Shown here piece by piece: positions 1 to 20,000 of a DNA stretch of 20,000 bases. The notes under the pieces are model-generated. The model did no database searches. It saw nothing but the letters and a program-made list of their open reading frames with translations, and was not told the origin of the DNA. How positions within the stretch are numbered: position 1 is the stretch's first letter; the number at the start of each line of letters is the position of its first letter. Position numbers and translations under genes: made by a program. This DNA comes from an uncultured virus (IMG/VR IMGVR_UViG_3300046007_006189) (lineage: Duplodnaviria > Heunggongvirae > Uroviricota > Caudoviricetes). Where the stretch lies: the IMG/VR virus record IMGVR_UViG_3300046007_006189. The stretch is one strand, 5' to 3'.

Positions 1-3000
1 AAATCCGGTAACAGTTGTATTTAAACTAGTCGATGAATTTATTGTTGGTGTAGATCCAGCACCACTAACATAACTCCATTCTGTTGTTACTGATCCTCCA
101 TCTGGATCAGCAACACTTGCACCACTTCCAATTGTTATAGATTGTGATGATCCTCTATAAGTATCAGTAACATTATTAAGACTATTAATCGTGGGGGATG
201 AACTATTTACTACAACATTTGTTGTTTGTGATGTTGTATTTGTGCCATCAGAAACATCTACTTTAAACGTATATGTTCTACTTGATGGTGTGGTGGAGGA
301 AGAAAAAGGCACAGTCATTCCAGAAACTGTTGCTGTGTTTGCACTAGTACCAGAACCGGGTACTATTGTTGCTAATGGCGTGGCCGGAGAAGTTTGACTA
401 AAACTATAAGTTAATGGTTGAGAATTAGGATCGGTTGCACTTACAGTTAATGATGTACCAGCAGAACCGTCTGATATAGTTACTGATGTTGGGGTTGCAG
501 TAAAACTATTAATACTTGGTGCGGGATTTGCGTTTACTGTTATTTGTCTTGTAACAGCAGTAGATTGTCTTCCATTATTGTCGGTTACTATTAGTTGTAC
601 TGTATAACTTCCTGCTAAATCTACAGTTAATGTTGGATTAGAAACACTAGTACTATTCAATGATGCATTACTTCCGTTTGGTTTTGCTGTTATTGACCAA
701 GCGTATGTAGAGATAAATCCATCGGAATCGGATGCAGAAGAAGCCAATGAAACTGTGTTTACGGGTAAAGTTATAGAAGTTCCGTTAATTACAGGTGAAG
801 TAATTGTTGCGGTTGGTGCTGCATTTCTTTTTATGGTATAAGATCTTGAGGCTCCAGTTGAATTTGGATCCCTTACTACTAAAGTAAATCCATATGTTCC
901 ACCTATTTGCGGATCTGTAAAAAATATATTAGTTTTTCCATCACTTGATGATGGAGTTATTATGTTTGGAGTTCCTGCCCCTGCGGGTCTTATTGCAGTA
1001 CTTGCAATCCAACTAAAGGTGAAAGGCCCTGCGGGGTCGTTTACATCGTTTGCTGTTATATTAAATAAACTTGTATTAAATGATGTCGAAACTCCATCAA
1101 AATTTTGAACTAATGTTCTAGTCGTTTCTGTTATAGATGGAGAAGAATTTGCAAATGCTAAGTTTTTTCCTGAAGATATTACAGTCTGACCTTCATCATC
1201 TGTTATTCTAAAAGAAAAAGTATATCCGCTAGCTGTTCCACTAGGAATTAATCTTGGTCCTAAAGTACAAGTTGAACTATATGTTGTTCCTGCGCCGCTT
1301 GTAGATGATATGGTTGGATTTGTAAATGATATATTTCCAGTATAAGTAGAAGGGAATGCATCACATGTAAATGTAGGTGAAGTTAATGAACCTCCATCTG
1401 GATCATTTGCAAAACCAGTAATACCAAAACTATAAGGATTATTAAAATTTACATTATTAATTAGAATTGAAGGTAAAAATACTTGCGCCGTTGGGGCTTG
1501 ATTATTTACTACAACATTTACTGAATTGGAAGTTACAGTTTGATAGTCATCAGATGCCTTTGCAACAAAAGAATATGTTCTTGGAGTCCCATTTGTATTT
1601 GGTATTAATCCAGATATTATTCTTGTCCATGTTGTTGGACCATTTAAAACTGGTGTTACTGTATATTCACTATAACCATTGGTTTCCTCAATATTCAAAG
1701 AAGTAACATCGGAAGATGTTGTTGCAGTTAATGTAACACTATTACTGGGTAGAGTTATATCGCTTGTAGAAGTAATAAGATTTACTGTCGGCGGAGCATC
1801 AGATATTAATTGAATTTGAACTGTGTCTTCCGAAGAAGTATTTCCATTATTATCAGTTATTGTTAAACCAAATACATACACTCCAAAAGTAGAAATATTG
1901 ACTACTGTATTTTGAGAAATTGGAGGAACTAAAGATGCAGCATTTCCGGGATTTGTAATTATTCTCCAAGAATATGCAGAAATAGAACCACCAGATTGAT
2001 CTGTTCCTGAACCAGTTAAATTAAATTGTTTTGGCCAAGAAGTATTTGCTGCATATGTGTATGATTGATCGTTTCCTGCATTTGCAATTGGATTTGGATC
2101 AGTCACATTTAATGTTAATGTACTGGTTGATGTTGAACCAGAGGCATCTGTTACTGAAACGGTAGCAACATGTGTTCCGCCTTTGTTCAATCCAGAAAGA
2201 ATAGTTGTTCCGCTTGTAGAATTGTTTGGTGTAAATGTATATGTTGTACTCGGCCCGCTCAAACTCCAATTATATGTAAATGTGGATTGATCTGGATCAG
2301 TCGCAACTGCTGTTATTGATTGTGATGTTATTGGTAATGTTAATGATGTTGGATTAGCCGGGGATGTTATTTGAACTGTTGGACCAGTATTGACAACAAA
2401 AAATGTATATGTGCTGTCAGTGAATGCAGTACAAGTATCAGTTGCTCTGACTTTAAAAGAAAATCCATTTGTTACACTTACAAAGTCAGCAGCAGTTTTA
2501 GTTGGATCTTTATTTAAGAAAATACTAAAAGTATTATTTGCTGAATTGAAAGAATTAACACCACGGGTAAAATATCCCGTTGGTTGTAAAGACCCAAGAA
2601 CAAATGCAATATTTGATATGCCATTAGAATCTGCTGCACTGAAATCAAATGGTCCTATAGTCGCAGGAAGTGGATTTGAAAAATTTATAGAAGTCGGATT
2701 TGTTATTACTGGTGGATTATTAATTTCTTGTGTTACACTAATGAAAACATCTTTTGTTACACTTTGAGAAATAGTAGAATCTGAAGTGTTTGCAAAACCC
2801 TGTTCAGTCACTGATACTTTAAATACATAAGTACCAGCACCAGTAATGTTAAAAATTGAAGTTATTGTATTATTTTGTGTACTAGTAGAGACAAATTGAG
2901 CATTTATTCCTGCTGTTGATTGGATAGCATCAAATTGTATTTGTGTGATTAATTGATTTACTGGCGTTAAATCGTCAGTTACATTTGCTACAATTGCAAT

Positions 3001-4955
3001 ATTTTTTCCAGTAATTAGTTCAGAACAACTAGCAGATATGGAAGTTTGTGTCTGGGTAGTGTCAATTACTGGTAATTCATTTCTAACAATTTGAAAAGTT
3101 TTAGTTAAAACTGTACTTTGTTGTCCTTCGTTGTCTATTGAATAATGGGAAAGATTAAATGTTCCTGTTCTTGCAAATGTCAAAGTAGGAGTAGAAGAAT
3201 TAGCATTTGTAATAACAACACCACCAGCAGGAGAACATGTTGTATTATACGAAACAATAGACCCGCCATCTGGGTCTGTTGCGTTTAAATTACAATTTAG
3301 TATAAAATTAGATCTTAAATTTGTTGTTAGAGTACCATCAGAAAGGACTTCAGTAAATCGATATATTGGTGCGTCAATTGTAGGAGAATAGGTTGCAGAT
3401 ATTGTTGGTATTTGTGATACAACAGTTATTTTTGTACTCTTTGTTGTTTCGTTACCAAGAGAATCTTTGACATATAATGTTGCATAGTATATTTTATCTG
3501 TCAATCCACCCGGTCTACCACCCGCCACGTTATATGATGAAGTAGATGACAATAATGAAGCATATGGAATCTCTGTGTCTATAATACCATCTACTGTGTC
3601 TTTAGTGAGAACCCATTTAAATTCAAGTGCATCGTTTTCTGGATCCGATATTCCACTTGCAAAAACTGTAAAACTTGTATCTGGATTTACATTAAAATCC
3701 GAACTTATTGTTGTGATTATTGGCGCACCACTACGATTTATTATAATCGAAATGGTTGCCTGCGCTGTTGCTCCAGATGGATCCGTGACCGTGCATCTAA
3801 ATTGATATGTACCTGTATTTCTCAGATTTACTGTTATAGATGAAGTAGTTGGATCGGTTATTGAGTTTACTGTACCCGAAATAACAGCCCAATTATATGT
3901 TAAAGTTTCATCATCGATTGCGGTTATACTAAGAGTTCTTGTAATATTTACTGCTTCTGTTGCATTTACAGTAATTGTTTCATCTGGTGTTTGTGATGTA
4001 ATTACTGGATTATTATTTGTTACTATGAATGATACTTCTTTTGTAACTGTATTGAATGCATCAAAAGGATCTTGTTGTAAAGTAAATCTTGCTTTATAAG
4101 TACCAACCATAGTAGATGGTATTATTTTTTGAATATTTGCAACACCAGATAGTGGTGGAAGATTTTCATATTCCGTAGAGGTTATAGAAGAATCAGGATA
4201 AATCGTATCCCACTTATATTTTAAATTTCCTTGATTTGCATCTATTTGTGCCTTTGCTGTAAATGAAGTTCCAACATTTCCAGATGCGGGTGTTACTGTT
4301 AATGTGAATGTTGGTAATAAATCTCTTGTAAAGGCCAGAACAGTATTTCTTGTTGAAGTCTGACCTTCATCATCAGTTACTGTGCATTTTACTGTAATAA
4401 AGAAAGAATTTACTTCATCCGAGGGAGCATCTACAGAAAGTTTAACAGAAGATTCTGTAATTGGTGTTATGGTTGTTTGAGAGTTTCCTGTATTTGTTAA
4501 TACTTCAAATTGATATGTTACATCTCCACCATCTGGATCATATGCTTGGGCAGCAATTGTTCTTTCAATTGTGGTTGGTAGAGATTGTAGCGTTATTACA
4601 TCTGGAAATTCTGTTAAGGATTCAATAACCGGATTTTGTGTTTGTATGTTCAAAGATACTGATTTTGTTGTTACATTATTTCCAGTATCTTTGAGTGACA
4701 CTATTATTTCATAACTTGTAGTTTCTGTACCAAATTGTTGCAATGCTTGTGTTGTATATGATGTAAGTTGTAAATTTGGTAAAGAAACAAATTCAGTTCT
4801 ATAAACTTCTGTAGTAGATGGTTGTAATCTATTTACTATGACTCTATATGTAAGTGCATTATTTTCTGGATCAGATGCATTTAGAATATTAATCGTTGCA
4901 GTTTCATTCGGCAACACAGTTGGTGTCGTTAATACTAAATCAAAAACCGGAGGAT
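1..4955 (-). repeat. Tandem array of about 16 divergent PKD/Ig-like domains (~95-120 aa each) inside the giant CDS
   Basis: Recurrent pattern N-x-x-P...(A/S)xDP(D/E)G..(L/I/V)(T/S)Y.W...G.Y.(F/V)...V(T/S)D..G. The Asp motifs lie near 105, 430, 725, 1035, 1400, 1710, 1998, 2292, 2628, 2972, 3272, 3642, 3915, 4235, 4533 and 4868 (spacing ~290-370 nt). One unit has the classic PIANAGNDQ start (~2070-2095) and others have ITLP-type motifs. Confidence 0.82.
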
Positions 4956-6525
4956 TGTTTACTGGGGGTGTGTCTGTGCCACCAACACATCTGCAATTTA
5001 CATTCTCGCATCGCTCTTCTTCACCCATAAAAATGCCATCATATTCGGCACTTTTGCATTCTGCTGGAGTCAAATCATCAAAGCAAAGAAGATCTTTAGC
5101 AGCACATGCACAGCAAGCACCTCTTCCTATATTCTTCTCGCAGCAATTTGTAGTAGAACAATCTCCGCCTGTAAATGATCTACCGCCCAAAATCAACTCA
5201 CATTGTATTCTGGAAAGTTGATCACCTATACAGTTTCCATCTTTACAGCATGACAATTTTTCAGTTTCACATGGGTCAAAGCACAAACGACCTTCTGTTA
5301 TAACGCTTTCATAATTTTTTCCACTAGAATTGTTTGGATAGGTTCCACAAGCAATGCCAGAATAGAAATTTCCACCAAAGAAAGAACATTCTTCTACACT
5401 TACATTTTCTATGCATTGTCCGTTTGAACAACAAAGACCCAATTCAGTACCACATGATTCTACACAAGAAACAAGAGGAGAGAATCTACCACCCAATAAA
5501 TCACATTGATCTTTTGTAGAATAATCTAAACAATTTAATGTATTTTCTGGATATTTGGTATAGCAGCAAGAACCAGTTGAAAGTGCAGGAACGCAAGATT
5601 CTATATTGGCAAAGGTATCCCTATTTGTATAGGTTAAATCTATTCCTCTTTGAGAAACTACTGCATACCAGTTGTTTCCTGCGTCAAAAGAAAATAGATT
5701 GACTATGCTTTTACCACAAGTAAAGTAGTTTTCATTCTCTTCAAAATAAACATTTTCTGGGAACTTCCAGATATCATCAGAAGTAAATAGAACGGTTGCA
5801 GTTATAATTTCATTTTGTTTAAATGAACCAGTAAATCCTGCAATGCCAATTGGTGTTTGTAGAACGTAAAAACCACCATTCTCTAGATCAATATAAATTC
5901 CACCAGTTGTTCCTATGGTAAAATTTTCTAGTTCTCCATTGACACCAACATATTGATTTTTCTTAACCGGCCCTACTCTTTTTGTATAAGCAGAATCGTT
6001 CAAAAAGAATTGGTTCTGGAAGTTCATATTTCCAGTACCGTCTAGTTTGACCCGCGTACTTGATGCCAGATTAGATCCCTTTAGATACATTAAAGTATCT
6101 GCGGACAATCCGAGCGAGTACAAATTTCCCACCGTAGATGTGTAAGTCGTATCAATTAATAAATTGTTATTCGTTGTAGTGACAACAAGAGAACCAACAC
6201 CACTGATACCTTTGATATTTAATTGACCTTCAGAAGAAGATCCGACTATAGAAATACCCTCACCTACAGATTCTGGTATTTCAGTATTACCATATCCGGT
6301 CGTTCCGCGAAATGTTCCTTTTATTTCAGAAGTCACTCCGTCAGAAAATGTTAATACTACTCCGGTGGTTATTCCTTGAATAGAAATTACATATTTACCA
6401 TATGTACCTGTTGCTCCAGTAGCACCTGTTGTGCCAGTAGCACCAGTAGCACCAGTTCGTCCTATAGGACCAGTGGGGCCATCCGGGCCTAGCATTTTGA
6501 TTGATGAAATTGAGCTACTATACAT
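1..6525 (-). CDS. Giant putative virion fibre/adhesin, >2175 aa, 3' end outside the window: collagen-like N-terminus, beta-sandwich fibre domain, 4 GxCC Cys repeats, >=16 PKD/Ig-like repeats
   Basis: Not in the ORF track. ATG at 6525-6523 gives MYSSSISSIKMLGPDGPTGPIGRTGATGATGTTGATGATGTYGKYVIS..., paralogous to 6543..10070. The same frame is still coding-like at 541-840 (NAAPTATITSP...ITLPVNTVSLASSASDSDGFISTYAWSITAKPNGSNASLNSTSVSNPTLTVDLAGSYTVQLIVTDNNG) and at 1-120 (ASVADPDGGSVTTEWSYVSGAGSTPTINSSTSLNTTVTGF). The track lists no closed minus-strand ORF here, consistent with no in-window stop. Confidence 0.92.
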   Translation of the reverse strand, partial: MYSSSISSIKMLGPDGPTGPIGRTGATGATGTTGATGATGTYGKYVISIQGITTGVVLTFSDGVTSEIKGTFRGTTGYGNTEIPESVGEGISIVGSSSEGQLNIKGISGVGSLVVTTTNNNLLIDTTYTSTVGNLYSLGLSADTLMYLKGSNLASSTRVKLDGTGNMNFQNQFFLNDSAYTKRVGPVKKNQYVGVNGELENFTIGTTGGIYIDLENGGFYVLQTPIGIAGFTGSFKQNEIITATVLFTSDDIWKFPENVYFEENENYFTCGKSIVNLFSFDAGNNWYAVVSQRGIDLTYTNRDTFANIESCVPALSTGSCCYTKYPENTLNCLDYSTKDQCDLLGGRFSPLVSCVESCGTELGLCCSNGQCIENVSVEECSFFGGNFYSGIACGTYPNNSSGKNYESVITEGRLCFDPCETEKLSCCKDGNCIGDQLSRIQCELILGGRSFTGGDCSTTNCCEKNIGRGACCACAAKDLLCFDDLTPAECKSAEYDGIFMGEEERCENVNCRCVGGTDTPPVNNPPVFDLVLTTPTVLPNETATINILNASDPENNALTYRVIVNRLQPSTTEVYRTEFVSLPNLQLTSYTTQALQQFGTETTSYEIIVSLKDTGNNVTTKSVSLNIQTQNPVIESLTEFPDVITLQSLPTTIERTIAAQAYDPDGGDVTYQFEVLTNTGNSQTTITPITESSVKLSVDAPSDEVNSFFITVKCTVTDDEGQTSTRNTVLAFTRDLLPTFTLTVTPASGNVGTSFTAKAQIDANQGNLKYKWDTIYPDSSITSTEYENLPPLSGVANIQKIIPSTMVGTYKARFTLQQDPFDAFNTVTKEVSFIVTNNNPVITSQTPDETITVNATEAVNITRTLSITAIDDETLTYNWAVISGTVNSITDPTTSSITVNLRNTGTYQFRCTVTDPSGATAQATISIIINRSGAPIITTISSDFNVNPDTSFTVFASGISDPENDALEFKWVLTKDTVDGIIDTEIPYASLLSSTSSYNVAGGRPGGLTDKIYYATLYVKDSLGNETTKSTKITVVSQIPTISATYSPTIDAPIYRFTEVLSDGTLTTNLRSNFILNCNLNATDPDGGSIVSYNTTCSPAGGVVITNANSSTPTLTFARTGTFNLSHYSIDNEGQQSTVLTKTFQIVRNELPVIDTTQTQTSISASCSELITGKNIAIVANVTDDLTPVNQLITQIQFDAIQSTAGINAQFVSTSTQNNTITSIFNITGAGTYVFKVSVTEQGFANTSDSTISQSVTKDVFISVTQEINNPPVITNPTSINFSNPLPATIGPFDFSAADSNGISNIAFVLGSLQPTGYFTRGVNSFNSANNTFSIFLNKDPTKTAADFVSVTNGFSFKVRATDTCTAFTDSTYTFFVVNTGPTVQITSPANPTSLTLPITSQSITAVATDPDQSTFTYNWSLSGPSTTYTFTPNNSTSGTTILSGLNKGGTHVATVSVTDASGSTSTSTLTLNVTDPNPIANAGNDQSYTYAANTSWPKQFNLTGSGTDQSGGSISAYSWRIITNPGNAASLVPPISQNTVVNISTFGVYVFGLTITDNNGNTSSEDTVQIQLISDAPPTVNLITSTSDITLPSNSVTLTATTSSDVTSLNIEETNGYSEYTVTPVLNGPTTWTRIISGLIPNTNGTPRTYSFVAKASDDYQTVTSNSVNVVVNNQAPTAQVFLPSILINNVNFNNPYSFGITGFANDPDGGSLTSPTFTCDAFPSTYTGNISFTNPTISSTSGAGTTYSSTCTLGPRLIPSGTASGYTFSFRITDDEGQTVISSGKNLAFANSSPSITETTRTLVQNFDGVSTSFNTSLFNITANDVNDPAGPFTFSWIASTAIRPAGAGTPNIITPSSSDGKTNIFFTDPQIGGTYGFTLVVRDPNSTGASRSYTIKRNAAPTATITSPVINGTSITLPVNTVSLASSASDSDGFISTYAWSITAKPNGSNASLNSTSVSNPTLTVDLAGSYTVQLIVTDNNGRQSTAVTRQITVNANPAPSINSFTATPTSVTISDGSAGTSLTVSATDPNSQPLTYSFSQTSPATPLATIVPGSGTSANTATVSGMTVPFSSSTTPSSRTYTFKVDVSDGTNTTSQTTNVVVNSSSPTINSLNNVTDTYRGSSQSITIGSGASVADPDGGSVTTEWSYVSGAGSTPTINSSTSLNTTVTGF
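4993..6525 (-). repeat. Copy B of the duplicated 511-codon N-terminal module (copy A at 8538..10070)
   Basis: Translations align throughout, e.g. LYSLGLSADTLMYLKGSNLASSTRVKLDGTGNMNFQNQFFLNDSAY is identical in both. The offset is 3545 nt at both the ATG and the last shared Cys. Confidence 0.93.
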
Positions 6526-6534
6526 GGTATAAAG

Positions 6535-6542
6535 TATCTATA
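6535..6542 (-). promoter_or_regulatory. Possible T4-like late promoter variant TATAGATA
   Basis: Minus strand reads TGA-TATAGATA-CTTTATACC-ATG, one mismatch to the T4 gp55 late consensus TATAAATA. It sits in the 17-nt intergenic gap with no obvious Shine-Dalgarno. Confidence 0.4.
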
Positions 6543-9500
6543 TCAGCAAAGTTCATATGATGACATATCTGTTTCTGTAACTATAGGAACACAATCATAA
6601 GTTTCATCGATATTATATATTTTTACAAATGTTATTGGTGTATTAATTGTAGTAAATGGTGAAGATGTTGTTGGTGGTACTGGGGAACCAAAGTCTCCAT
6701 TGCAAGATATTGTCATTCTTCCGGGCATTTTAATCGTAGGAACACCTTTGCCTGGAGAATTTGGATTATAAGGGCCACTTCCTGATGTGCCTGGGAACCA
6801 ATCAGGATAAGTTGCTTCCTTTGTCCAACCGCCTGGCGCACATTTTGGGCATCCAGTTACATGCCATACTGGCGGTGATTCTTGTGGACTATCTGAAGTA
6901 CCCGGATTTGGAAATGTTTTCGGTGTTTGAATTTCATCGTCATTGCCTCCGGGTACAGTTTTATCCCAATCTTTTATATACTGATTATAACATGGATCTT
7001 TCATAAACATACAAACAGTATCGCCCTGACAGAACATTCCACAAATACCATTTGCAAGACAATATCCTGTATTGTTTTCTTGTGCGGGTTTATCATCGGC
7101 GTTTATGACTCCACCATTATCTGGATTACCACAGCATTTACCATAATCAATATTTCCATTGCCACTTCCTTGGCCCTTTCCGCCACCTTCTCCGTTTTTA
7201 TTTCCACCCTTACATCGGGGTTGTCCATTTGGGGCCACTTCCCAGTCTGTACCATCCCCTCCTCCACCTGGTCCTTTATCTCCAGATGGTCCAAGATTTT
7301 TTTGTGATGGATCATTTAAACCTTTGCATGGGGGGTCTTTATATAGCGCACACGGAAAAGGAGTACAGTTAGCTCCAACCTTTTTTGGGCAATAGCATTC
7401 AAATTTTACATTACTATTTTTGCCTTTAAATATATCAACAAAACTATCTGGTAGGTTTTCTGCATATTTGCACGGATCGGAACCAAAATTAAATGGACAG
7501 CTTAAATTAGTATTAGCATTATTCAATATCTGTGAACAATCTTCACCAGGCACGGCACCGCTAAATGGACAACCTCCGTGGCCAGGACATAATGCGTCTT
7601 TTTCTTCATTCGTTCCAGATGTCATTGTTTTCTTAGCTTTACAGCAAACAAAGAATTTCATCATCTCTTCGTAGCAATCCATGCGACAAAGAACCTTACT
7701 GAAATCTGGACAGCCAGCATCAACTCCACAATTTGGCATTATAGCAAACTGTGCGCCTTCCTCTTCACCTGCTGGAGTACCAGATGATGGTCCTCCAGCC
7801 GGTGGAGCTTGTTTTTTCCAGAAAGGAATATGTGAATCGTCCCCATTTTTACATGGTGAAACATATTTACCGTCTTTGAAGTGGTACGGATTCTTATGGC
7901 GATAGCAGCATCTGTTTGTGTAATTATCTGGATTTCCAAGATCGCCAGCTGGATTGGGCGAGCCGTCTGGATTTTTTAAAGGTCCAGTAGCACCACCATC
8001 TAATGGTTCATCTTTAATAATTTCTTTGCCCCAACCAGTATAGTTGCAACTTGGACATATATTTTTGGGTGGTCCCGTTTCGCCCGGGCCTGCACCTCCG
8101 CCTGATCCTGTACCCTGCCCACCACCTGTCTGTGTGCCGCCGTCTTCTCCTCCAGTATCTGTGCCACCACCATCATCCGGACCTGAGGGATTACTGGGAT
8201 CTCCATCTCCGTTGTCTGTTCCTCCAGTTTCTCCACTTTCTCCACCTGTGCCGCCAGTTTCACCTTCACATGTGGTTGATCCGCATATTACGCCATCTCC
8301 TTTATATACACCACCGGCACTAGAACATTCTGCATATGTTTTTGTACTACAAGTAGTTCCAATACAACATGCACCTTTTCGTTGTTCACATTCTGTATCG
8401 CTACAAACATCTCCTGCTTGACCCGGAATTCCACCTAGTGATATGCACTGAGAACGAGGAACATCAACGCAACTTCCATCGGTCTTACAGCAGGGAACAT
8501 TTGGATCTTCTGGTGGGATATTAGCACAAGAACAATCACAATTTAAATTCTCACACCGCTCACCTTCACCCATGAATATTCCGGTGTATGCAGAATTTAT
8601 AGACTTTGCATATTTTGTGCATTGAGATTTTGTTAAGTCATCTTTGCATTCAACTGACTTTCCTGCGCTGTTATTACATACACAGCAAGCACCCGTACCT
8701 ATATTATTTTCACAACAATTTATAGTGGAACAATCTCCACCAGTAAAAGATTTACCACCAAGTATTAATTCACATTGTATTCTTGAGAGATCATCGCCTA
8801 TGCAATTTCCATCTTTACAGCAGGCCAATTTTTCAGTTTCACAAGCATCAAAGCATAGTCTTCCTGCTTCTATCGGATAACCATAATTAGGGCCTGCTGG
8901 ATTATTTGGATAAAACGAACAATTTATAGTTGAATAGAATCTACCACCAAAGAATGTACATTCTTCGACATCTACGTCAGCCAAGCACTGACCGTTTGAA
9001 CAGCAAATACCGCCTTGAGCACAAGTCTGACTGCATGAAGAAAGTGCGGTAAATTCACCACTCAACAATTGACATTCATCTTTTGTTACATACTCAACAC
9101 AGTTCTTCGTGTTTTCTGGGTATTTTGTATAGCAGCAAGATCCTTTACCAAAGGAAGACTTACATGCATTCAGGAATTCTACATCCAACCCACGCTGAGA
9201 AACGGTAGCATACCAATTGTTTCCTGCATCAAATGTGAATATATTGACTATGCTTTTGCCACATGTAAAGTAGTTTTCGTTTTCACTGAAGTATACATTT
9301 TCAGGGAACTTCCATATCTCATCTGATTCTATTATTAATGTTGCATTTAGAATTTCATTTCGTCTGAATGAACCAGTAAATCCTGCAATACCGATTGGTG
9401 TCTTTACCAGATATAGACCGCCATTCTCTAAATCAATATAGATTCCCCCCGTGGTTCCTATAGTAAAGTTTTCTAAGGCTCCGGTGATGCCGACATATTG

Positions 9501-10070
9501 ATTTTTCTTTACAGGTCCAACTTGTTTTATGTATGCAGAATCATTTAAAAAGAATTGGTTCTGGAAGTTCATATTTCCAGTACCATCCAATTTTACTCTG
9601 GTACTTGATGCCAGATTAGATCCCTTTAGATACATTAAAGTATCTGCGGATAGACCGAGGGAATAAAGATTTCCTACAGTTGTTTTGTATATCGTGTCTA
9701 TTTTTAGGTTACTATCATCAACCGTTATTGCTAACGATCCAATGGCACTTATGCCTTTTATGTTCAGTTGACCTTCGGAGGAAGAACCAACTATTGATAT
9801 TCCTTCTCCTACCGATTCTGGAGTTTCTGTATTACCATAACCAGTAACACCCTTTAGGTTTGCGGTTACTCCGCTTGTGGTTCCATCTGAGAAAGTTAAT
9901 ATTATTCCGGTAGTTGCACCTATAGCAGAAATTACATATTTGCCATATGGTCCTGTATTTCCTGTTGCTCCGGTTGTTCCCGTCGCTCCAGTTGCACCAG
10001 TTCTACCAATTGGGCCGGTGGGGCCTAGAGGGCCAAATAAAGAATTTTTAGATATTGCGCTGCTGTACAT
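6543..10070 (-). CDS. Putative virion fibre protein, 1175 aa: collagen-like G-X-T triplets, beta-sandwich fibre domain, 6 GxCC-type Cys repeats, Gly/acidic linker, unrecognised Cys/Pro/Gly-rich C-terminal region
   Basis: Long ORF, ATG to TGA. Contains GPLGPTGPIGRTGATGATGTTGATGNTGPYG and IDLENG...IWKFPENVYF...FTFDAGNNWYA, which resembles the common phage 'DGGTTWYG'-type tail domain. About 77 Cys by manual count. Confidence 0.9.
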   Translation of the reverse strand: MYSSAISKNSLFGPLGPTGPIGRTGATGATGTTGATGNTGPYGKYVISAIGATTGIILTFSDGTTSGVTANLKGVTGYGNTETPESVGEGISIVGSSSEGQLNIKGISAIGSLAITVDDSNLKIDTIYKTTVGNLYSLGLSADTLMYLKGSNLASSTRVKLDGTGNMNFQNQFFLNDSAYIKQVGPVKKNQYVGITGALENFTIGTTGGIYIDLENGGLYLVKTPIGIAGFTGSFRRNEILNATLIIESDEIWKFPENVYFSENENYFTCGKSIVNIFTFDAGNNWYATVSQRGLDVEFLNACKSSFGKGSCCYTKYPENTKNCVEYVTKDECQLLSGEFTALSSCSQTCAQGGICCSNGQCLADVDVEECTFFGGRFYSTINCSFYPNNPAGPNYGYPIEAGRLCFDACETEKLACCKDGNCIGDDLSRIQCELILGGKSFTGGDCSTINCCENNIGTGACCVCNNSAGKSVECKDDLTKSQCTKYAKSINSAYTGIFMGEGERCENLNCDCSCANIPPEDPNVPCCKTDGSCVDVPRSQCISLGGIPGQAGDVCSDTECEQRKGACCIGTTCSTKTYAECSSAGGVYKGDGVICGSTTCEGETGGTGGESGETGGTDNGDGDPSNPSGPDDGGGTDTGGEDGGTQTGGGQGTGSGGGAGPGETGPPKNICPSCNYTGWGKEIIKDEPLDGGATGPLKNPDGSPNPAGDLGNPDNYTNRCCYRHKNPYHFKDGKYVSPCKNGDDSHIPFWKKQAPPAGGPSSGTPAGEEEGAQFAIMPNCGVDAGCPDFSKVLCRMDCYEEMMKFFVCCKAKKTMTSGTNEEKDALCPGHGGCPFSGAVPGEDCSQILNNANTNLSCPFNFGSDPCKYAENLPDSFVDIFKGKNSNVKFECYCPKKVGANCTPFPCALYKDPPCKGLNDPSQKNLGPSGDKGPGGGGDGTDWEVAPNGQPRCKGGNKNGEGGGKGQGSGNGNIDYGKCCGNPDNGGVINADDKPAQENNTGYCLANGICGMFCQGDTVCMFMKDPCYNQYIKDWDKTVPGGNDDEIQTPKTFPNPGTSDSPQESPPVWHVTGCPKCAPGGWTKEATYPDWFPGTSGSGPYNPNSPGKGVPTIKMPGRMTISCNGDFGSPVPPTTSSPFTTINTPITFVKIYNIDETYDCVPIVTETDMSSYELC
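8065..8267 (-). repeat. Low-complexity Gly/Thr/Asp/Glu linker
   Basis: Encodes EGETGGTGGESGETGGTDNGDGDPSNPSGPDDGGGTDTGGEDGGTQTGGGQGTGSGGGAGPGETGPP; locally GC-richer. Confidence 0.8.
8538..10070 (-). repeat. Copy A of the duplicated 511-codon N-terminal module (copy B at 4993..6525)
   Basis: See copy B. Includes nucleotide-identical blocks 9547-9584 = 6002-6039 and 9601-9650 = 6056-6105. Confidence 0.93.
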
Positions 10071-10077
10071 GATTAAT

Positions 10078-10085
10078 TATTTAGG
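10078..10085 (-). promoter_or_regulatory. Possible T4-like late promoter (CCTAAATA) overlapping the upstream stop codon
   Basis: Minus strand reads CC-TAAATA-ATTAATC-ATG. TAAATA is the core of the gp55 late consensus, 7 nt before the ATG at 10070. No Shine-Dalgarno visible. Confidence 0.45.
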
Positions 10086-13000
10086 AAGAACAATTATCAT
10101 AATCGAAGCAAGACGGACATGTTTGGAAATTATATTCACTGTATGCATCAATTATTTCTATATCGGAGCATCCGACAACTATTGGTATTCTTCGGACAGG
10201 TCTTAGTCTGCACAGAGTCTGTCTATCGAGACTCAATACTTGACCATACGCACCATTAGCTGCTTTGCCGAAGTTTTGTGCTAACATTTTTTGACCATTG
10301 CAAATTTGATGAGAAAGGTCAAATGCTTGGGCATCAGATAGTCCAAAATCAATAGATAAGAATCTAGATTTATTGTTTATGGTGTCACTTGTTGATTCTA
10401 AAGTATACAAATCTTTTATTGTGTGGTTTTGATTATTCCATGATTTAACTCTGCAAACACTTGTCGATGTCCAATAAATGGTATCTCGTGTGTCGTTATC
10501 ATTATCATAGAAAGTACCAGAACCCTCAAAGTTCCAATTACGCATTAATTCGTGATCATCATCGCCAATTGTAAGAATAGATTGGTTTATCTCTCCAATA
10601 TACTTTGCAATATAATTCATTTCTACTATGCTTGGAATATACCAATCATCGTATCCATAGAAATTGATTTCATTTGCTTTTGATATTTGTCTTATTGCTG
10701 TATTTTCTGGATTTAATTTTTCCCACAATTGAGAATAGTAATATGCAAATGTATCTTTATCTGTTTCGATTTCTTGTTTGACTTCGTTTTCGACCAAGTT
10801 CCATTGATTTATATTTTGCGAAACGAATCGATTATATGCCAATTCATCTATTCCATCACCATCATAATCTCTAAACCAGAATTCTGGTTTGCTCTTAGAA
10901 TATGAATCGTGTATTCTTGTATTGAGCAATCCATCCACAGGCGAAGTTGCAACGGGTTCGATGAAATAGTTTGGTAACTTTGCTTCCGAACCCGGTCCTA
11001 CGCGAGACTCAAACATATTAGACCACTTCATATAACCAAATGTAACACCGGCATAATTTGTATATAGATCTCTTGGTGCTAAGATCAATGCCCATGAAAT
11101 ATGAATTGCTCTTTTACCATAGAACTGCTCTGCCATATATTTGTATAGACTAGAAGATGGTGTGCCCAATCCAACAACTTCAGTCATTATATTGCAAGTT
11201 TGATTATCGAAGGAAAGATACATTGTTGGTTGATAAGTATCTGTTCCCTCGAACATAGTTTGACTTGGCCAAGACACATCATTTCCGATATCAGTAGTAC
11301 CAGATACCAATTGTGTGATATATGGTGCTCCTGCTTTCAACAAGCATTTGTTTGCATACATTTTGAGAGTCGGTACTCTTGGATGTGTTCTGTTGAAATA
11401 TTCACGGTAGTATGCACTTGTTGATGGTATTTCGCCTTGATATGTTTTGCAGTTTTTAAATTTCCAAGTTTCGGATTGGTCGCCTGCAACTTCACCTCTT
11501 GGATTGCATAGGCACTCAAGTGGTTCTCCAAGTGCAGTTTGTGGTTGTGAGAAAGTGGTGCAGGAATTTGGTGCTCCTATTATTGCAACTAGATATCCAC
11601 CACCAATTCTTGTACCCGGCGCATTACACGGATCGTTTGATGTTTGTCTGCATGTGGTGGATTCTTTGTAATATTCTGGAGAATACGAAACACCACAGCA
11701 ATTAATTTCTTCACATAGTGTTCCCAGTCCCATGAATACACCACCAGCACTAGAACATTCTTCTGGTCTTTTTCCGCCTTCACAGTTACTATTACCCTGA
11801 CCATCAGAGAAGCAACATGCACCAACATAATTAGAAACGCTGCAACAATAATCAGTATCATTTATCTTCGGTAATTCGTCGCACGATTTTCCAAGAATAA
11901 ATACTGTGTCTGGAATTGCATTACATTCTGCTTGATTTAAATTTAGACATCTTCCCTTATAGCAGCAGGAACCAAGACCAGTAGAGCAAGCATCCGGACA
12001 AGAGAACGCTGGTTCTCCTTCTATGATTGTTGTAGAGCACAATTCATCAGGGAAGAAAACTCCACCATATTTTGTGCAAGATTCAAGATTTGTATTTACG
12101 CACTTTCCATTTACACAACATGCACCTTCTGGAAAACAATCTGTAGTTCCTGCACGTTCGACACAAGATCTATTACTAAATTGACCACCTATATCAACGC
12201 AATAATCTCTATTGCAGTAATCTATGCATAGTTTGTCGTTTGTGCCTTGAGGACAGAAACAGCACGAACCAAATTTATCGTCTGTTAAAAGTTGTGGAAG
12301 GAATTGAAATAAACCTTTGGTAAATGTAATTCCCTGAGACAAGAATTGTACTTTAGTACCGCTTCCGCTTCCGGTCGTTCCAAAGAAATATTTTTGTTGA
12401 ATATCAAACTGATTATTCGGAATATCGTAAACACCATTATTTGATACAAAAGAATCCGATCCATTCCATTTTTCTATTATTTGCATTTTACCGGCAGTGA
12501 AACCACCGGAAAGAGTTTGACCAAATTGAGAATATGTACTGAAAATTTGGGTATTTCCATAACTCCAAATGTTTCCAGTATTTCCAGAAATAGGTTGTCT
12601 GAATGTATCAAAACCAACAGTAAGTTGATTTATAATATCATTATAAAATGTCTCTCTTGCTCCAATTGCAACACCATTGCTCAAATACAAGAGTTCTCCT
12701 GTATTTCCTATTGGATATGTGTCGAATGTCTTGCCTCTTATAATTATTTGATTGGTGTTTTCAACCACACTTTCAATCTCACCATTCAATGAAGTGAATA
12801 GTAAAGATTTTACTTTTGGTGTTTCGTTGTATCCTATTTCAATTTTATTTGTGTCTTTTTCAAGATCATCCGTTGTATAGAACGGAGAGAATAAAGTTAT
12901 ACCACTTGCATTATTATTATCAAGAGTAGAACCAGAAAGCACGACAAAAGAATTGGTTGCATCTGTTCCAGCAGAACCAGTAATCCCGATTGTTACCGTT

Positions 13001-13212
13001 CCGGTTCCGCCAATGTAAAATGTAATATATCCACTTGATGTGGAAGTTGCCCCGGTAATACCATAACCAGTATTTCCGGTATAACCCAATATGCCACCAC
13101 CCGTCGGTCCAGTGGGTCCTGTAGGGCCGGTAGGTCCAGTTATACCAGTAAATCCGGTAACACCGGAATACTGCATTATGATATTTGAACTTCCGTATAT
13201 AAAATTAGTCAT
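10081..13212 (-). CDS. Putative virion fibre protein, 1043 aa: collagen-like N-terminus, 4 GxCC Cys repeats, C-terminal DUF1566/Lcl-like (C-type-lectin-fold) domain
   Basis: Long ORF. GITGPTGPTGPTGPTG; GSCCF/GACCV/GSCCY/GACCF repeats; C-terminal motifs GTRIGGGY, DGLLNT, GYDDWYIPSIVEM, YWTSTS and LRPVRR match the recalled DUF1566 pattern. Start overlaps the upstream gene by 8 nt. Confidence 0.88.
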   Translation of the reverse strand: MTNFIYGSSNIIMQYSGVTGFTGITGPTGPTGPTGPTGGGILGYTGNTGYGITGATSTSSGYITFYIGGTGTVTIGITGSAGTDATNSFVVLSGSTLDNNNASGITLFSPFYTTDDLEKDTNKIEIGYNETPKVKSLLFTSLNGEIESVVENTNQIIIRGKTFDTYPIGNTGELLYLSNGVAIGARETFYNDIINQLTVGFDTFRQPISGNTGNIWSYGNTQIFSTYSQFGQTLSGGFTAGKMQIIEKWNGSDSFVSNNGVYDIPNNQFDIQQKYFFGTTGSGSGTKVQFLSQGITFTKGLFQFLPQLLTDDKFGSCCFCPQGTNDKLCIDYCNRDYCVDIGGQFSNRSCVERAGTTDCFPEGACCVNGKCVNTNLESCTKYGGVFFPDELCSTTIIEGEPAFSCPDACSTGLGSCCYKGRCLNLNQAECNAIPDTVFILGKSCDELPKINDTDYCCSVSNYVGACCFSDGQGNSNCEGGKRPEECSSAGGVFMGLGTLCEEINCCGVSYSPEYYKESTTCRQTSNDPCNAPGTRIGGGYLVAIIGAPNSCTTFSQPQTALGEPLECLCNPRGEVAGDQSETWKFKNCKTYQGEIPSTSAYYREYFNRTHPRVPTLKMYANKCLLKAGAPYITQLVSGTTDIGNDVSWPSQTMFEGTDTYQPTMYLSFDNQTCNIMTEVVGLGTPSSSLYKYMAEQFYGKRAIHISWALILAPRDLYTNYAGVTFGYMKWSNMFESRVGPGSEAKLPNYFIEPVATSPVDGLLNTRIHDSYSKSKPEFWFRDYDGDGIDELAYNRFVSQNINQWNLVENEVKQEIETDKDTFAYYYSQLWEKLNPENTAIRQISKANEINFYGYDDWYIPSIVEMNYIAKYIGEINQSILTIGDDDHELMRNWNFEGSGTFYDNDNDTRDTIYWTSTSVCRVKSWNNQNHTIKDLYTLESTSDTINNKSRFLSIDFGLSDAQAFDLSHQICNGQKMLAQNFGKAANGAYGQVLSLDRQTLCRLRPVRRIPIVVGCSDIEIIDAYSEYNFQTCPSCFDYDNCSS

Positions 13213-16096
13213 TTATCACATTCTCATCTAGTCTAGTTATTCTCCAGTATTTATTATCTGAAGACGTATTATTAAAATAACTTTTATCACATCTTATTAA
13301 TTTGATTGGTCTGACTTTATATTTATTTTCTATTCTGTGTGCCTTTTTAGTGGTAAACTGATCAGTTAATCCATCAGAATCAAATTTAATTGCCCAAGAC
13401 ATTGTGCCGTGGGTCAGACCAGATGGATGATTCAGTACATATTCATTTGTGGTTCCATCAAATGTTCCGGTAGAAGACCAATACCATCCGTCCATTGGAG
13501 TTCCACCATTTTGTAATAGTTTTGCATTTACATTATCTTCTGAATCAGACAAACAGTTCTTAGCAATAAATGCCAATTCATCGTAACTTGGAATAAACCA
13601 ATCTGATATGAAATTATTGGTTTCTTCGTATGCTTTATTGAATAAAGACAATGCTCTTGCACTTGTAATTTCAGTTGCGTCTTGTGTTGGTGTATATGTG
13701 GTTTGAGTAAAATTAGAACCAGTTAGACCATAGTAGTATGCATATTCAGAATTTACCATTCTTATGGTATTCATTAATCCATAATTACGGAACCATTTAC
13801 CATTAAATGAACTATTTGGATTATTTGTGAGCCAAGAACTTGGTTCATTTGTCTTTCTTACAAATCCACAATCTATAAACGAATTTATTGTTAGATTTTG
13901 TTTTGTGTTTTCGTCTGTATAATCGTAAATGTAACCTTCCTTGTAGTTTAATTTATCTGAAGTTAATTCGGAAACTAAACCAGTAAATGGATTTACTAGT
14001 GGACCCCAATAGTTTCCACCGTGACTCCATATAAATTCTGTGGTATCAGAACTGGTTCCGGTATATTCTACAATTTCATTTGATTCATTTATTGTGATTG
14101 GATGCAAAGACATCAGAACAATGTAAGAATCCGATTCTGCATCACAAATGCTATCTCCTGTAAATCCATAACCCACAAAATCATAAATTGATTTATAATC
14201 AGAACAACTTATTTCTTCTTCTAATTCCTCAGTTAATTCTGCATATGTTGCAGATTGATTTGATCCAAATATTGGATTACCGAAGCACTTAGTTCCCTTC
14301 GGATTAAAGATTCCACAGACCATTCCGTTTTCATAGATATCACCAAAATTTAATGTTTCATTTGGAATTATTCCATAACAAGGAATTCCCTTAATGCGAC
14401 AATCGAAATCTATGCAAGAAGTTCCATCTCCAAAATATGTTTTATTATTGGAAATACAATCAGGACCATATACAGAATTTTCACAAGTTATTCCAGAATC
14501 ACAGCAGGATCCTGTGCCTCCATAGCAAACGGGAACTTGTTTTGATGATATACAATTAATTCCATCTCCCTGATAATACCCACCAATTGAAATGCATTGG
14601 TCTTTAGTTAAGGATTGACAGTTTCCATTACCATCGCAGCAAGCACCAAAGGACTCTAGTGCATTTGCACAATTAAAATCCAAGCAGGATTGCTTTGAAT
14701 TTTTAAACTCATACCAAGAATATTGCAATCCAGAATTATCTGCAATGCTTGCACAGTCACAAAATTTTAATTTCTGACATGGTAAAACTTTATTATTTGA
14801 ATCGCGCAAACAACATGCACCCAATTTACCACAGAATGTAGTTCCTTGTGCAGAAGTAAGACCAGCAATAAAGAATCCATCACATAGAATATTTAAAGTA
14901 TCAGATATAGTACAATCTGAATTGCAACAAATTCCTGCGGTAACTCCGGCGTTTGTTCCGTATGGAAGTTGTAATGCTCTTGTGAAAACAGTACCAACTT
15001 CACTACGACAGGAATATAATGTTGTTCTATCCGTTGTACTTGAATTATTAAAAGTAGCTCCAACGCTAGACATATTGGTAATATTAAAACCAATTACATT
15101 ACCATACCATATTCCACCTATTGAAACAAAATTTAAAAAGGTGTATGCATTTGCAGTACTAGAAAAACAAGGAACTTCACCTAAAGGCCATACCACAGGT
15201 GATATGTCCTTCAGTGACCAATTACTAATATCACTAAACGAATTTACTGTCGCGTATTCCACGGGAAGGGTTGTTGTATTTCCCGGAGGAATTATTATAG
15301 TAATAGAATGTGAATTGTTTGTATTTTGTGGTGCTTTGAGTACTATAAAATATCTACTAGTTGATACATTTCCACCAGAAATTGTAGTCGGCGATAAGTA
15401 AAAAGCATTTCCAACTGATGGATCTATTTCCCAATATTTTACTTGATTAGTTGTACCAGTTGCAACAGATGGAGTAGTTATTAAAAATCTCTGAGTTATG
15501 TTACTTGCTTGAGCATCTATTGTTTTAGATGATGTATTATAAGCAGTACCAGTTTCGCCTGTTTGGTAATTTCCTAGTGTATTTTTTAGTAACTGACCGT
15601 CGCTTCCACCGCTTATGCCCAAGAAAGAAATACCAATAAGATTATATTTAATCTCAATTGTCTTTCCATCATTCTCAACGATTGTAATATATGGATTACT
15701 ATTTGTTGATATATTTCTGAAAGTGACCATATCTACCGTGTAAGTAGAACCGTCATTTCTTGTATATAATTGATCATTTAAATCAGACTTTAGTACATTG
15801 TAAATATCTAAACTGGTTCCTGCAATTTGTAATTGAAAATTGCCAGTAATTCCTTGTATCTTACCTGTACTGTTTATAATTGTATTATCGTTAAAATAAT
15901 GCTGTAAGTAGTTGTTGGAATCTTTTGAAATGAAGATCAAAGAAGGTCCAGTGTTTCCTGTACTTCCTCTTTTATCTGGTCCAGTATTTCCCGTAACACC
16001 AATAGGGCCGGTTGGACCAGTAGCACCAGTAAGTCCCGAAATATTCGAGACTGTCTTTACTGGTATATTACTACTTCCGTATATAAAATTTGGCAT
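13205..16096 (-). CDS. Putative virion fibre protein, 963 aa: collagen-like N-terminus, beta-sandwich fibre domain, 4 GxCC Cys repeats, C-terminal DUF1566/Lcl-like domain
   Basis: Long ORF. GLTGATGPTGPIGVTGNTGP; VVWPLGEVPCFSSTANAYTFLNFVSIGGIWYG; GICCN/GACCL/GACCD/GSCCD; YGLMNT, DWFIPSYDEL, WYWSST, WAIKF and VRPIK. Confidence 0.88.
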   Translation of the reverse strand: MPNFIYGSSNIPVKTVSNISGLTGATGPTGPIGVTGNTGPDKRGSTGNTGPSLIFISKDSNNYLQHYFNDNTIINSTGKIQGITGNFQLQIAGTSLDIYNVLKSDLNDQLYTRNDGSTYTVDMVTFRNISTNSNPYITIVENDGKTIEIKYNLIGISFLGISGGSDGQLLKNTLGNYQTGETGTAYNTSSKTIDAQASNITQRFLITTPSVATGTTNQVKYWEIDPSVGNAFYLSPTTISGGNVSTSRYFIVLKAPQNTNNSHSITIIIPPGNTTTLPVEYATVNSFSDISNWSLKDISPVVWPLGEVPCFSSTANAYTFLNFVSIGGIWYGNVIGFNITNMSSVGATFNNSSTTDRTTLYSCRSEVGTVFTRALQLPYGTNAGVTAGICCNSDCTISDTLNILCDGFFIAGLTSAQGTTFCGKLGACCLRDSNNKVLPCQKLKFCDCASIADNSGLQYSWYEFKNSKQSCLDFNCANALESFGACCDGNGNCQSLTKDQCISIGGYYQGDGINCISSKQVPVCYGGTGSCCDSGITCENSVYGPDCISNNKTYFGDGTSCIDFDCRIKGIPCYGIIPNETLNFGDIYENGMVCGIFNPKGTKCFGNPIFGSNQSATYAELTEELEEEISCSDYKSIYDFVGYGFTGDSICDAESDSYIVLMSLHPITINESNEIVEYTGTSSDTTEFIWSHGGNYWGPLVNPFTGLVSELTSDKLNYKEGYIYDYTDENTKQNLTINSFIDCGFVRKTNEPSSWLTNNPNSSFNGKWFRNYGLMNTIRMVNSEYAYYYGLTGSNFTQTTYTPTQDATEITSARALSLFNKAYEETNNFISDWFIPSYDELAFIAKNCLSDSEDNVNAKLLQNGGTPMDGWYWSSTGTFDGTTNEYVLNHPSGLTHGTMSWAIKFDSDGLTDQFTTKKAHRIENKYKVRPIKLIRCDKSYFNNTSSDNKYWRITRLDENVIND

Positions 16097-19539: not shown

Positions 19540-20000
19540 TTATCCTATTTTAAGATTATTTAGGTACTGACAAACTGTAGTCGTTCCAACTGTTACCAGT
19601 TCTGCTATTGGTCTGGATGGATTTATTGAGACATCCAAAGAATTGTTTATTGTTACTTTATATCTGTGTGCGCCGCATGAATTGCCATTATTAAAACCAG
19701 CAGAATTGTCAGTAAAAACATAACCTTCGGCACTTTCTGATTCACTACAAGAAATAAACTGAAAACTAAGACTAAACCCAATTTGCTGACCAGTAGTTGC
19801 AGCTGCTGTTAAATTGTTTTGATTATATAACCAATACTTCAAACCATTTCCCACAGTAACCAAGTACCAACCTTCTCTAACAGTAACTATACCATTTTCA
19901 AATATTACAGCATTTGGATTATATGGCACAGCACCATTCCACATTGGATATTTTAAAGTTGCACCCACTTGACCTACTTCCCCAGTAAGTGGCCAATTAG
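19540..20000 (-). CDS. 3' part of a hypothetical (probably structural) protein; start lies beyond the window
   Basis: The frame stays open upstream of the GTG at 19968 to the window edge (NWPLTGEVGQVGATLKYP...). It ends in tandem TAA TAA directly before the ATG at 19536. Confidence 0.75.
   Translation of the reverse strand, partial: NWPLTGEVGQVGATLKYPMWNGAVPYNPNAVIFENGIVTVREGWYLVTVGNGLKYWLYNQNNLTAAATTGQQIGFSLSFQFISCSESESAEGYVFTDNSAGFNNGNSCGAHRYKVTINNSLDVSINPSRPIAELVTVGTTTVCQYLNNLKIG

Follow-up and report, generated by a model that had tools for sequence, protein, structure and literature searches.

A cassette of putative collagen-stalked fibres with two fixed heads and one exchangeable payload in an uncultured T4-like phage

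Introduction

Collagen-like phage fibres, lectin-fold receptor-binding domains and the modular exchange of fibre parts are already known. In cultured phages a conserved N-terminal anchor combined with a swapped C-terminal receptor-binding part is the general rule. Here we describe four consecutive genes on a stretch of 20,000 nucleotides (in the following called the window) from the uncultured virus IMGVR_UViG_3300046007_006189 of the IMG/VR database. It is likely that these genes encode paralogous, collagen-stalked and probably trimeric virion fibres of a phage host-recognition region. Their products share an N-terminal part with collagen and Cys-rich repeats, which we call the chassis, and differ in the regions that follow it.

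The interval between the baseplate and neck genes of pelagi- and cyanomyophages has been called the host recognition cluster; it is hypervariable and contains collagen repeats and carbohydrate-binding domains (PMC7029224). ORFs (open reading frames) of P-SSM2 with G-X-Y repeats have been proposed as fibres (PMC1079782). Lcl is a collagen-stalked adhesin whose trimeric (homotrimeric) head binds sulphated glycosaminoglycans (PMC11162425), and DUF1566 appears in work on diversity-generating retroelements as a variable domain that binds ligands. Host recognition of the abundant uncultured marine and freshwater T4-like phages is largely unannotated.

Architecture of the four proteins

The four genes lie on the minus strand, as do all large ORFs of the window. 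From upstream to downstream they are the slot-1 gene (P0004, 963 aa, 13205..16096), which has orthologues at the same place in related loci, the slot-2 gene (P0003, 1043 aa, 10081..13212) and two slot-3 genes. Copy A of the latter (P0002, 1175 aa, 6543..10070) is assigned by the chassis family and a tail hidden Markov model (HMM); copy B (P0001, 1..6525) is represented by 2175 aa in the window and by 2906 aa in full. The packing is operon-like: the ORFs of slots 1 and 2 share 8 nt, and the next two gaps measure 10 and 17 nt.

The proteins start with the related peptides MPNFIYGSSNI (P0004), MTNFIYGSSNI (P0003), MYSSAIS (P0002) and MYSSSIS (P0001). Each then shows uninterrupted G-X-Y triplets as in the collagen repeat (PF01391). 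In P0004 the run covers residues 21-41 (7 triplets), with three further triplets after a break of two residues (15941-16036). It spans residues 17-40 in P0003 (8 triplets, 13093-13164) and residues 13-45 in both P0002 and P0001 (11 triplets each; 9936-10034 and 6391-6489, respectively). The original prediction had rightly noticed these runs; their range is 7 to 11 triplets instead of 7 to 10. With 18.7 bits (E 0.0015) the Pfam Collagen match of P0001 stays under the cut-off of 27.2, owing to the shortness of the run.

A beta-rich spacer of about 266-348 residues (9156-9935 in P0002) leads from the collagen run to the first copy of a Cys-rich repeat, here called the CC repeat, with the pattern G-x-CC ... 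C ... C ... GG-x-[FY]-x-G ... C. By a strict regular expression there are three copies each in P0004 (~14399-14929) and P0003 (~11698-12264), six in P0002 (8271-9155) and four in P0001 (4987-5586); a fourth copy is seen by eye in P0003 and P0004. ORFs and translations thus agree with the originally predicted row of four genes with related start peptides, spacer and CC block, except that the number of four repeats per protein does not hold for P0002.

The regions downstream of the repeats are also as first described. P0004 ends in an Lcl_C/DUF1566-like region (13208-14389) and P0003 in an expanded Lcl_C-like head (10084-11697), both with Pfam scores below the cut-off. P0002 continues with a Gly/Pro/Cys-rich payload (6651-8270), followed by a conserved C-terminal Cys tail (6546-6650); its residues 601-1175 comprise 6.1% Cys, 16.9% Gly and 11.0% Pro. 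In P0001 a PKD/Ig-like array extends from ~4938 to beyond position 1 of the window.

An AlphaFold2 model of the chassis, based on 36 sequences, has a mean predicted local distance difference test (pLDDT) score of 65.5. The CC repeats are modelled with pLDDT 70-89 as two strands, a short helix and one strand, and the second half of the spacer reaches 60-80. In the monomer residues 1-180 are mostly below 50, residues 1-42 entirely so. The low values over residues 1-180 would fit a region that folds only as an oligomer.

Queried separately against Pfam, the CC block, the spacer and the C-terminal region after the PKD array gave no family even at E<=5. In the ESM Atlas the CC block matches unnamed clusters at 0.85-0.86, one viral and two from Planctomycetota, which we take as a lead only. 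NCBIfam gave nothing meaningful (best E 0.0037, far under the cut-offs). The families of the T4 tail fibres (gp34-gp37, gp12) and of fibritin gave no Pfam or PHROG match outside the collagen run, and the Foldseek rows with T4 gp34 were all without significance (E 0.056 at best). The C1q family is absent among the Pfam matches of the fibre proteins.

A homologous chassis

The chassis is homologous across all four genes, as had been predicted. In BLASTP comparisons P0001 and P0002 are 72% identical over residues 1-513 and P0003 and P0004 41% over residues 1-116, and P0003 matches P0001 and P0002 over the Cys block with E-values of 1.5e-21 and 9e-15. The spacers were compared by local hhalign, using alignments of 64, 39 and 43 unique sequences. 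Slots 3 and 1 align with a probability of 98.4 (E 4.9e-15, 252 columns), slots 2 and 1 with 97.1 (E 4.8e-11, 144 columns, restricted to the first half) and slots 3 and 2 with 90.7 (E 1.3e-06, 114 columns); controls of spacer against C-terminal domain gave 0.1. Residual G-X-Y residues at the alignment starts may raise the spacer scores slightly; the alignments reach far past them.

In every slot the N-terminal peptide generalises to [I/Y]-[G/S]-S-S-x-I. The spacer contains a conserved motif, W-x-F-P-x-N-V-Y-F. Median values for slots 1, 2 and 3 are 10, 10 and 11 triplets for the total collagen length, 20, 20 and 15 for the position of the first collagen glycine, and 335, 271 and 282 residues for the spacer. 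The collagen part is interrupted to a median of two runs per protein in slots 1 and 2 and forms one run in slot 3. The shared N-terminal peptide and the similar collagen length would fit docking at equivalent sites.

A search with the chassis (P0002 residues 1-600) scored 7,994 candidates and revealed 47 clusters (90% identity) of 674-2044 aa. Where a source name is given it reads 'hypothetical protein', except for one entry labelled 'YgcG' and two strings without information; cluster look-ups yielded no further informative name. A profile of 36 chassis sequences (A2) was searched against 1.84 billion representatives and matched 13,883 clusters at E<=0.001, 1,578 at E<=1e-10 and 207 at E<=1e-30 (50%-identity clusters). 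By the last of these numbers the family is widespread, with almost no member informatively named. Among the 150 matches listed, those to the start of the profile sit at the protein N-terminus in nearly all cases, and the matching proteins reach 3,347 aa.

The weaker A2 matches include proteins with only the collagen run or only CC repeats, for example P0166 and P0173. P0173 combines Laminin_G_3 with 11 matching stretches and carries CC-type repeats outside the chassis family; it is cellular, since it is encoded on a 5.3-Mb contig. P0166, likewise outside the family, has PKD and beta-helix parts and 21 matching stretches.

Against the PDB the chassis profile matched collagen chains (1wck, E 2.9e-08). 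The likeness to BclA (1wck), a phage hyaluronidase (6x3m) and a fibre (6v8i) is confined to the G-X-Y run, at about profile positions 12-47 (up to 106 in 6x3m); outside the run the chassis has no similarity to these proteins.

In prokaryote genome contigs the chassis was found at only two loci, both on contigs of metagenome-assembled genomes (MAGs). One of these contigs (L079, 27.7 kb) belongs to a MAG with the title Terrimicrobiaceae (Verrucomicrobiota). This is probably a phage contig which was binned with the genome, at most a weak hint to the host, and we do not take it as a host assignment.

Three slots in related loci

The original prediction had proposed a profile search of IMG/VR for the copy number, synteny and C-termini of chassis genes. 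Our scan with the chassis alignment gave 229 stretches, 117 of them encoding a relative; the best 80 were kept and correspond to 74 loci. ORFs of at least 100 aa were called on the plus strand, dropped if they overlapped a longer ORF by more than 30%, and labelled by phmmer with the proteins of the window's own record. Slot 1 was defined by a C-terminus matching P0004, slot 2 by one matching P0003 and slot 3 by a P0002-type spacer. Nearly every locus has the order p219, p757, p384, slot 1, slot 2, slot 3, p500, p178, gp13, gp14, gp15.

A family of four genes is not the ground plan of the cassette. Thirty non-redundant loci span the whole interval from p384 to p500; 29 of them contain three collagen genes, and four are found only in the window's record. 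The pattern slot 1, slot 2, slot 3 occurs in 23 of the 30. The C-terminus of slot 2 is unrecognised by its marker in four more; one locus has slots 1 and 2 both unrecognised and one extra gene without collagen, and one has slot 2 unrecognised and two extra Cys-rich genes without collagen. The remaining locus is that of the window, with two slot-3 genes in a row. Two slot-3 genes are also present in L008, L060-L062 and L067, none of which spans the whole interval, and in L003, where one of the two is cut at the 5' end and the interval is not wholly spanned either.

The two slot-3 copies of the window have 73-80% DNA identity over the chassis (repeats D2-D7). Because the related loci carry three genes, the four genes of the window go back to three old paralogues, of which slot 3 was recently duplicated. 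The comparison indicates that the three-slot cassette is the ancestral state. The sharing of modules, originally described for four genes, extends to a fifth gene, p500, and by its N-terminal peptide to a sixth, p384. The conserved order can guide the annotation of host-recognition regions in phage genomes from metagenomes.

Fixed heads of slots 1 and 2

The slot-1 and slot-2 genes are fixed orthologues with fixed heads across the related loci. Pfam Lcl_C (PF07603) matches P0003 with 23.1 bits (E 9.2e-05) and P0004 with 17.5 bits (E 0.0052). At E<=0.01 all 35 of 35 slot-2 C-termini match this family, the best with 3.6e-09; the P0003 fragment scores 23.8 bits. Slot-1 and slot-2 C-terminal profiles align with each other in hhalign (probability 98.5, E 1.5e-15), and each of them matches the C-terminus of p500 (probability 97.1, E ~6e-11).

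For residues 506-1043 of P0003 AlphaFold2 gave a model with pLDDT 84.5 and a predicted template modelling score (pTM) of 0.90 from 35 sequences. Foldseek found no match to this head model at E<=1e-3; the top two rows were 4eps and the Lcl C-terminal domain 8q4e_A. VIA-align was run on Foldseek's 168 candidates. The next-best score was 5.7, and the rows beneath are C-type lectin domains with the exception of one PorK/PorN row. The model contains the fold of the solved Lcl C-terminal domain, and since the aligned range covers residues 15-504 of the model, large insertions are present in a small Lcl core. By the profile comparisons and this model slots 1 and 2 end in fixed heads of the Lcl_C/DUF1566 (C-type-lectin-like) fold.

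Lcl (PF07603, 8q4e) is similar in being collagen-stalked and in the head fold common to slots 1 and 2. In contrast to Lcl, the phage head, with its large insertions, extends over about 500 residues, and its sequence score stays under the Pfam cut-off. A spacer of 270-350 residues and four CC repeats lie between collagen and head, and the collagen comprises only 7-11 triplets.

We also looked for a diversity-generating retroelement. No template/variable repeat pair was found in the window, where direct repeats of at least 40 nt are limited to the duplicated slot 3, the collagen runs and a weak pair within the PKD array, and a reverse transcriptase is absent among the genes of the 32-kb record, which corresponds to about 14% of the genome. 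A repeat pair of this type was therefore rejected for the window, though an element could lie elsewhere in the genome. In contrast to the DUF1566 receptor-binding domains targeted by such elements, diversity here comes from paralogy and cassette replacement.

Exchange of the slot-3 payload

Different, exchanged payloads had been predicted for the whole family, a view against which fixed tips would count. Fixed tips are found in two of the four genes, slots 1 and 2; the expectation holds for slot 3, where payloads swap between close relatives. As payload we regarded the remainder past the end of the chassis HMM in 90 unique complete slot-3 proteins. It ranges from 88 to 2,493 residues (median 728). 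Among 28 pairs with 90-100% chassis identity, less than 15% of the payload is alignable in two and at least 50% in 26. For the 37 pairs with 70-90% chassis identity the respective numbers are 13 and 24. The low-complexity filter of BLAST was on in this comparison, and some discordant pairs may be due to truncated proteins, for example P0006.

The clearest boundaries are seen between L022 and L048. Their DNA is 90.4% identical over 11.4 kb up to position 11467, which is the end of the chassis, and 90.1% identity resumes at the start of p500. The 3,054 and 1,797 bp in between show no similarity. This is a clean cassette swap, and such clean breakpoints at chassis end and gene end mark natural swap sites. 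Swapping of the outer part of slot 3 probably changes what the virus sticks to.

Single linkage with at least 50% mutual coverage groups the payloads of the 90 proteins into 32 clusters. Representatives of 31 of them (the cluster of the window's own record was left out) were scanned with Pfam. A convincing family within the payload was found only for the PKD type; 30 of 31 have none. The remaining matches at E<=1e-4 are one sub-threshold Mucin and one N-terminal Collagen. Because 30 of the 31 scanned types lack a Pfam match in the payload, the payloads may represent a reservoir of unknown surface-binding domains.

The last ~35 residues of slot-3 proteins form a conserved tail with the consensus ...KIYINxxDYxCVPIxCxxxCxxYELC. 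P0002 ends with ...YDCVPIVTETDMSSYELC and the full-length P0001 with ...YECVPVLYDPDLIKQYELCES. An HMM of this tail matches 61 of 90 slot-3 proteins, but none of 47 slot-2, 50 slot-1 and 13 other proteins. It also recognises 11 more ORFs, which are 5'-truncated slot-3 genes or chassis-less CC-repeat proteins adjoining slot 3. The slot-3 proteins are consequently bounded on both sides, by the chassis at the N-terminus and by the tail at the C-terminus. Tail-fibre and tailspike exchange in cultured phages is similar in that the N-terminal anchor is kept and the distal part replaced between close relatives. Unlike in those fibres, the variable part of slot 3 is internal, because the extreme C-terminus is also conserved, and two sister slots stay fixed.

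P0001 runs 731 codons past position 1 of the window, giving an ORF of 2906 aa (open frame of ~2,910 codons in the record). PKD and Ig-like families (PF22352, PF18911, PF00801) reach 150 bits in the part inside the window, against a cut-off of 27, and the PKD score of the full-length protein is 204.6 bits. An iterated search revealed at least 14 PKD-like domains in residues 644-2401. The array, originally described as a tip, is followed by ~500 residues without a Pfam family and then by the slot-3 tail. Since this non-PKD region and the conserved tail come after it, the array is an internal shaft and no tip.

Several slot-3 genes look unusual. In L037:5861-9150 and L033:1-3242 the gene appears split into a chassis ORF (706 aa in L037; 677 aa and 5'-truncated in L033) and a short CC/tail ORF (396 and 402 aa, respectively), which could be real or an assembly frameshift. 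Three stop codons interrupt the tblastn chassis match in L051:2633-4765, which may reflect a broken gene or a match that runs across two ORFs. Some distant relatives encode extra, nearly pure CC-repeat proteins (L006:11951-15583, L006:15723-17378 and L076:13518-18596) with 15-18 pattern matches, and with 192 Cys in L006:11951-15583. They have neither collagen nor chassis, yet the slot-3 tail motif stands at their end.

Genomic context

The window lies to 100% within the IMG/VR record (G001, 32,429 bp, CheckV completeness 14), in reversed orientation. By annotation of the flanks the gene order is baseplate wedge, p219, p757, p384 and the four fibre genes, continuing with p500, p178, gp13, gp14, gp15 and the small and large terminase subunits. 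The upstream baseplate wedge genes are recognised by phrog_438 (E 8.1e-21) and by a weak match to PF23786, the gp13-like adaptor by phrog_211 (E 3.6e-34), the neck protein gp14 by PF11649 (E 2.9e-37) and gp15 by PF16724 (E 8.2e-62). The cassette thus sits in the structural module of T4-like phages, between baseplate-wedge and neck genes.

Among 2,594 matching records the best identity of the large terminase subunit to a cultured phage is 57.2%, to Synechococcus phage S-CREM1. As it is at most 57.2% identical to cultured phages, the source, an uncultured aquatic virus, is a divergent T4-like myovirus. Megablast of the whole window against deposited phages gave no match.

The host recognition cluster of cyano- and pelagimyophages occupies the same place between baseplate and neck genes (gp8-gp13 in S-PM2). 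Genes of S-PM2 within it bear the annotations 'virion structural protein' and 'tail fiber protein'. In contrast to that cluster, the chassis, P0003 and p500 have no tblastn match in any deposited phage.

Assembly and possible function

The most economical interpretation is that the cassette encodes three kinds of homotrimeric fibre, four in the window, with two constant lectin-fold heads and one swappable payload. The N-terminal peptide would dock these fibres at equivalent sites of the baseplate or tail. The short collagen run would trimerise the fibre and set the length of the stalk, and the CC repeats would act as a rigid spacer stabilised by disulfides or metal. The Lcl_C-like heads may bind carbohydrate on the host surface, and exchange of the slot-3 payload, by recombination at chassis end and gene end, would alter adhesion or host range. 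The family would follow a grammar of docking peptide, short collagen stalk, spacer and Cys-rich repeats, followed by a lectin-fold head that is fixed or by a payload that can be exchanged. The architecture is undescribed, as had been supposed: it occurs neither in the 50,697 deposited phage genomes nor in the literature searched. The chassis family, the CC repeat as a fibre module, the three-slot order and the two-sided bounding of slot 3 were likewise not found described in the databases and the literature searched.

Some observations weigh against an assignment as virion fibres. Because the tblastn search of deposited phages with the 513-residue chassis, P0003 and p500 was empty, the assignment has no annotated homologue to support it by name. 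All four proteins match PHROG families for tail fibre, collagen-like minor tail and virion structural proteins and two families of unknown function, with E-values of 3.7e-05 to 6.4e-03 and mostly confined to the collagen part. The Lcl_C scores of P0003 and P0004 are below the Pfam gathering cut-off of 34.9 bits, and 29 of the 90 slot-3 proteins lack a match to the tail HMM. The proteins contain many cysteines despite their synthesis in the reducing cytoplasm. All members of the family are uncultured.

Instead of receptor-binding tail fibres the proteins could be decorations of the neck, collar or head, like fibritin whiskers or Hoc, which serve weak adhesion to particles, mucus or cells or the sensing of the environment, with host recognition left to other proteins, for example p757. 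The fibre genes do lie just upstream of the neck genes gp13 and gp14, which is also the place of the whisker gene in T4. Long Ig-like arrays are typical of accessory adhesion domains, and it is p757, not the collagen genes, which matches annotated tail fibres of cultured myoviruses. However, the cassette comes directly after the baseplate-wedge genes, and two fixed lectin-like heads beside a hypervariable third slot are the pattern expected of receptor-binding proteins, so that we regard decorations as rather unlikely. That the proteins are no virion parts at all, but secreted or cell-surface proteins made in infection, which for example alter the host surface or block superinfection, is extremely improbable. 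Non-fibre genes such as glycosyltransferases are reported from the same region of pelagimyophages (PMC7029224), and the CC repeats of P0173 show that this module also exists in a cellular setting. Against this, the genes stand close together on a single strand, surrounded by structural genes, no obvious signal peptide is seen by eye at the translation starts, a structural role is favoured by the collagen and the fibre-like build, and the chassis is limited in prokaryote genome contigs to the two MAG loci.

C1q has three tandem paralogous collagen chains, and the slots might co-assemble in the same way as one heterotrimeric collagen fibre, with either slot-3 copy as the third chain in the window. 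The three collagen genes, present in all complete loci but that of the window (29 of 30), are tandem paralogues as in C1q, and their fixed order in 23 of 30 loci, the similar total collagen length and the homologous spacers would agree with such a fibre. We nevertheless consider it very unlikely. The spacers differ in length, the slot-2 spacer aligns in its first half only, the first collagen glycine is placed differently between slots, and payloads of 88-2,493 residues are hard to fit to one fibre of fixed geometry. Moreover, the heads are of the Lcl_C fold with no gC1q domain in Pfam, and the solved Lcl C-terminal domain is homotrimeric (PMC11162425). Distinctly unlikely, too, is that the cassette builds one composite adhesion organelle rather than three independent fibres. 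In one version of this idea slots 1, 2 and 3 co-assemble through their equal-length collagen runs, as C1q chains do; in another the 35-residue Cys tail of slot 3 is a docking peptide for p500. The cassette contains exactly three Lcl_C-like domains, in slot 1, slot 2 and p500, and the solved Lcl head is trimeric (PMC11162425). If p500 docked in this way, all fibres would bear a terminal Lcl_C-like head, which slots 1 and 2 carry in the same polypeptide and slot 3 would receive from p500; the swapped slot-3 payload would then serve as a replaceable shaft with a constant connector on either side. The conserved tail together with the constant presence of p500 suggests that p500 might cap slot 3.

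Neighbouring genes

The gene for p500 (P0052, 500 aa; L002:10895-12397 in G001) lies just beyond position 1 of the window and follows slot 3 in nearly every related locus. Its product has a conserved N-terminus of the type M-S/A-I-Q-F-R-S/T-R-..., one CC repeat, many more cysteines and the Lcl_C-like C-terminal domain; docking peptide and collagen are absent. In L049 it exceeds 2,589 aa and contains 10 CC repeats.

Upstream of slot 1, p384 (P0053, 383 aa, 16098..17249, minus strand) is a conserved neighbour of the fibres without collagen. It matches no Pfam family even at E<=5. Its N-terminus MPCSSSSNI (M-P-S-C-S-x-S-S-N-I in relatives) is an SSxI-type peptide as in the fibres, and it seems to end in a short coiled coil. 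L012 contains three tandem p384 copies.

Small and conserved, p178 (P0185, L002:12417-12953) is encoded between p500 and gp13. No family match was found; it has a Cys cluster of the C-x-G-x-C-G-C-G type and might be a metal-binding assembly factor.

The 3' part of p219 (P0186, 219 aa in the full record) occupies 19540..19998 on the minus strand and adjoins the baseplate-wedge genes in the full record. Next to it, also on the minus strand, is p757 (P0054, 757 aa, 17263..19536), the position of which is kept in related loci and the N-terminus of which is strongly conserved across them. Its C-terminal half resembles annotated tail fibres: in tblastn, residues 391-685 match 18 records (best E 2e-12) from phages of Ralstonia, Stenotrophomonas, Rhizobium, Ochrobactrum and Desulfovibrio, in which the matching protein is annotated as tail fiber, glycosylase or hypothetical protein.

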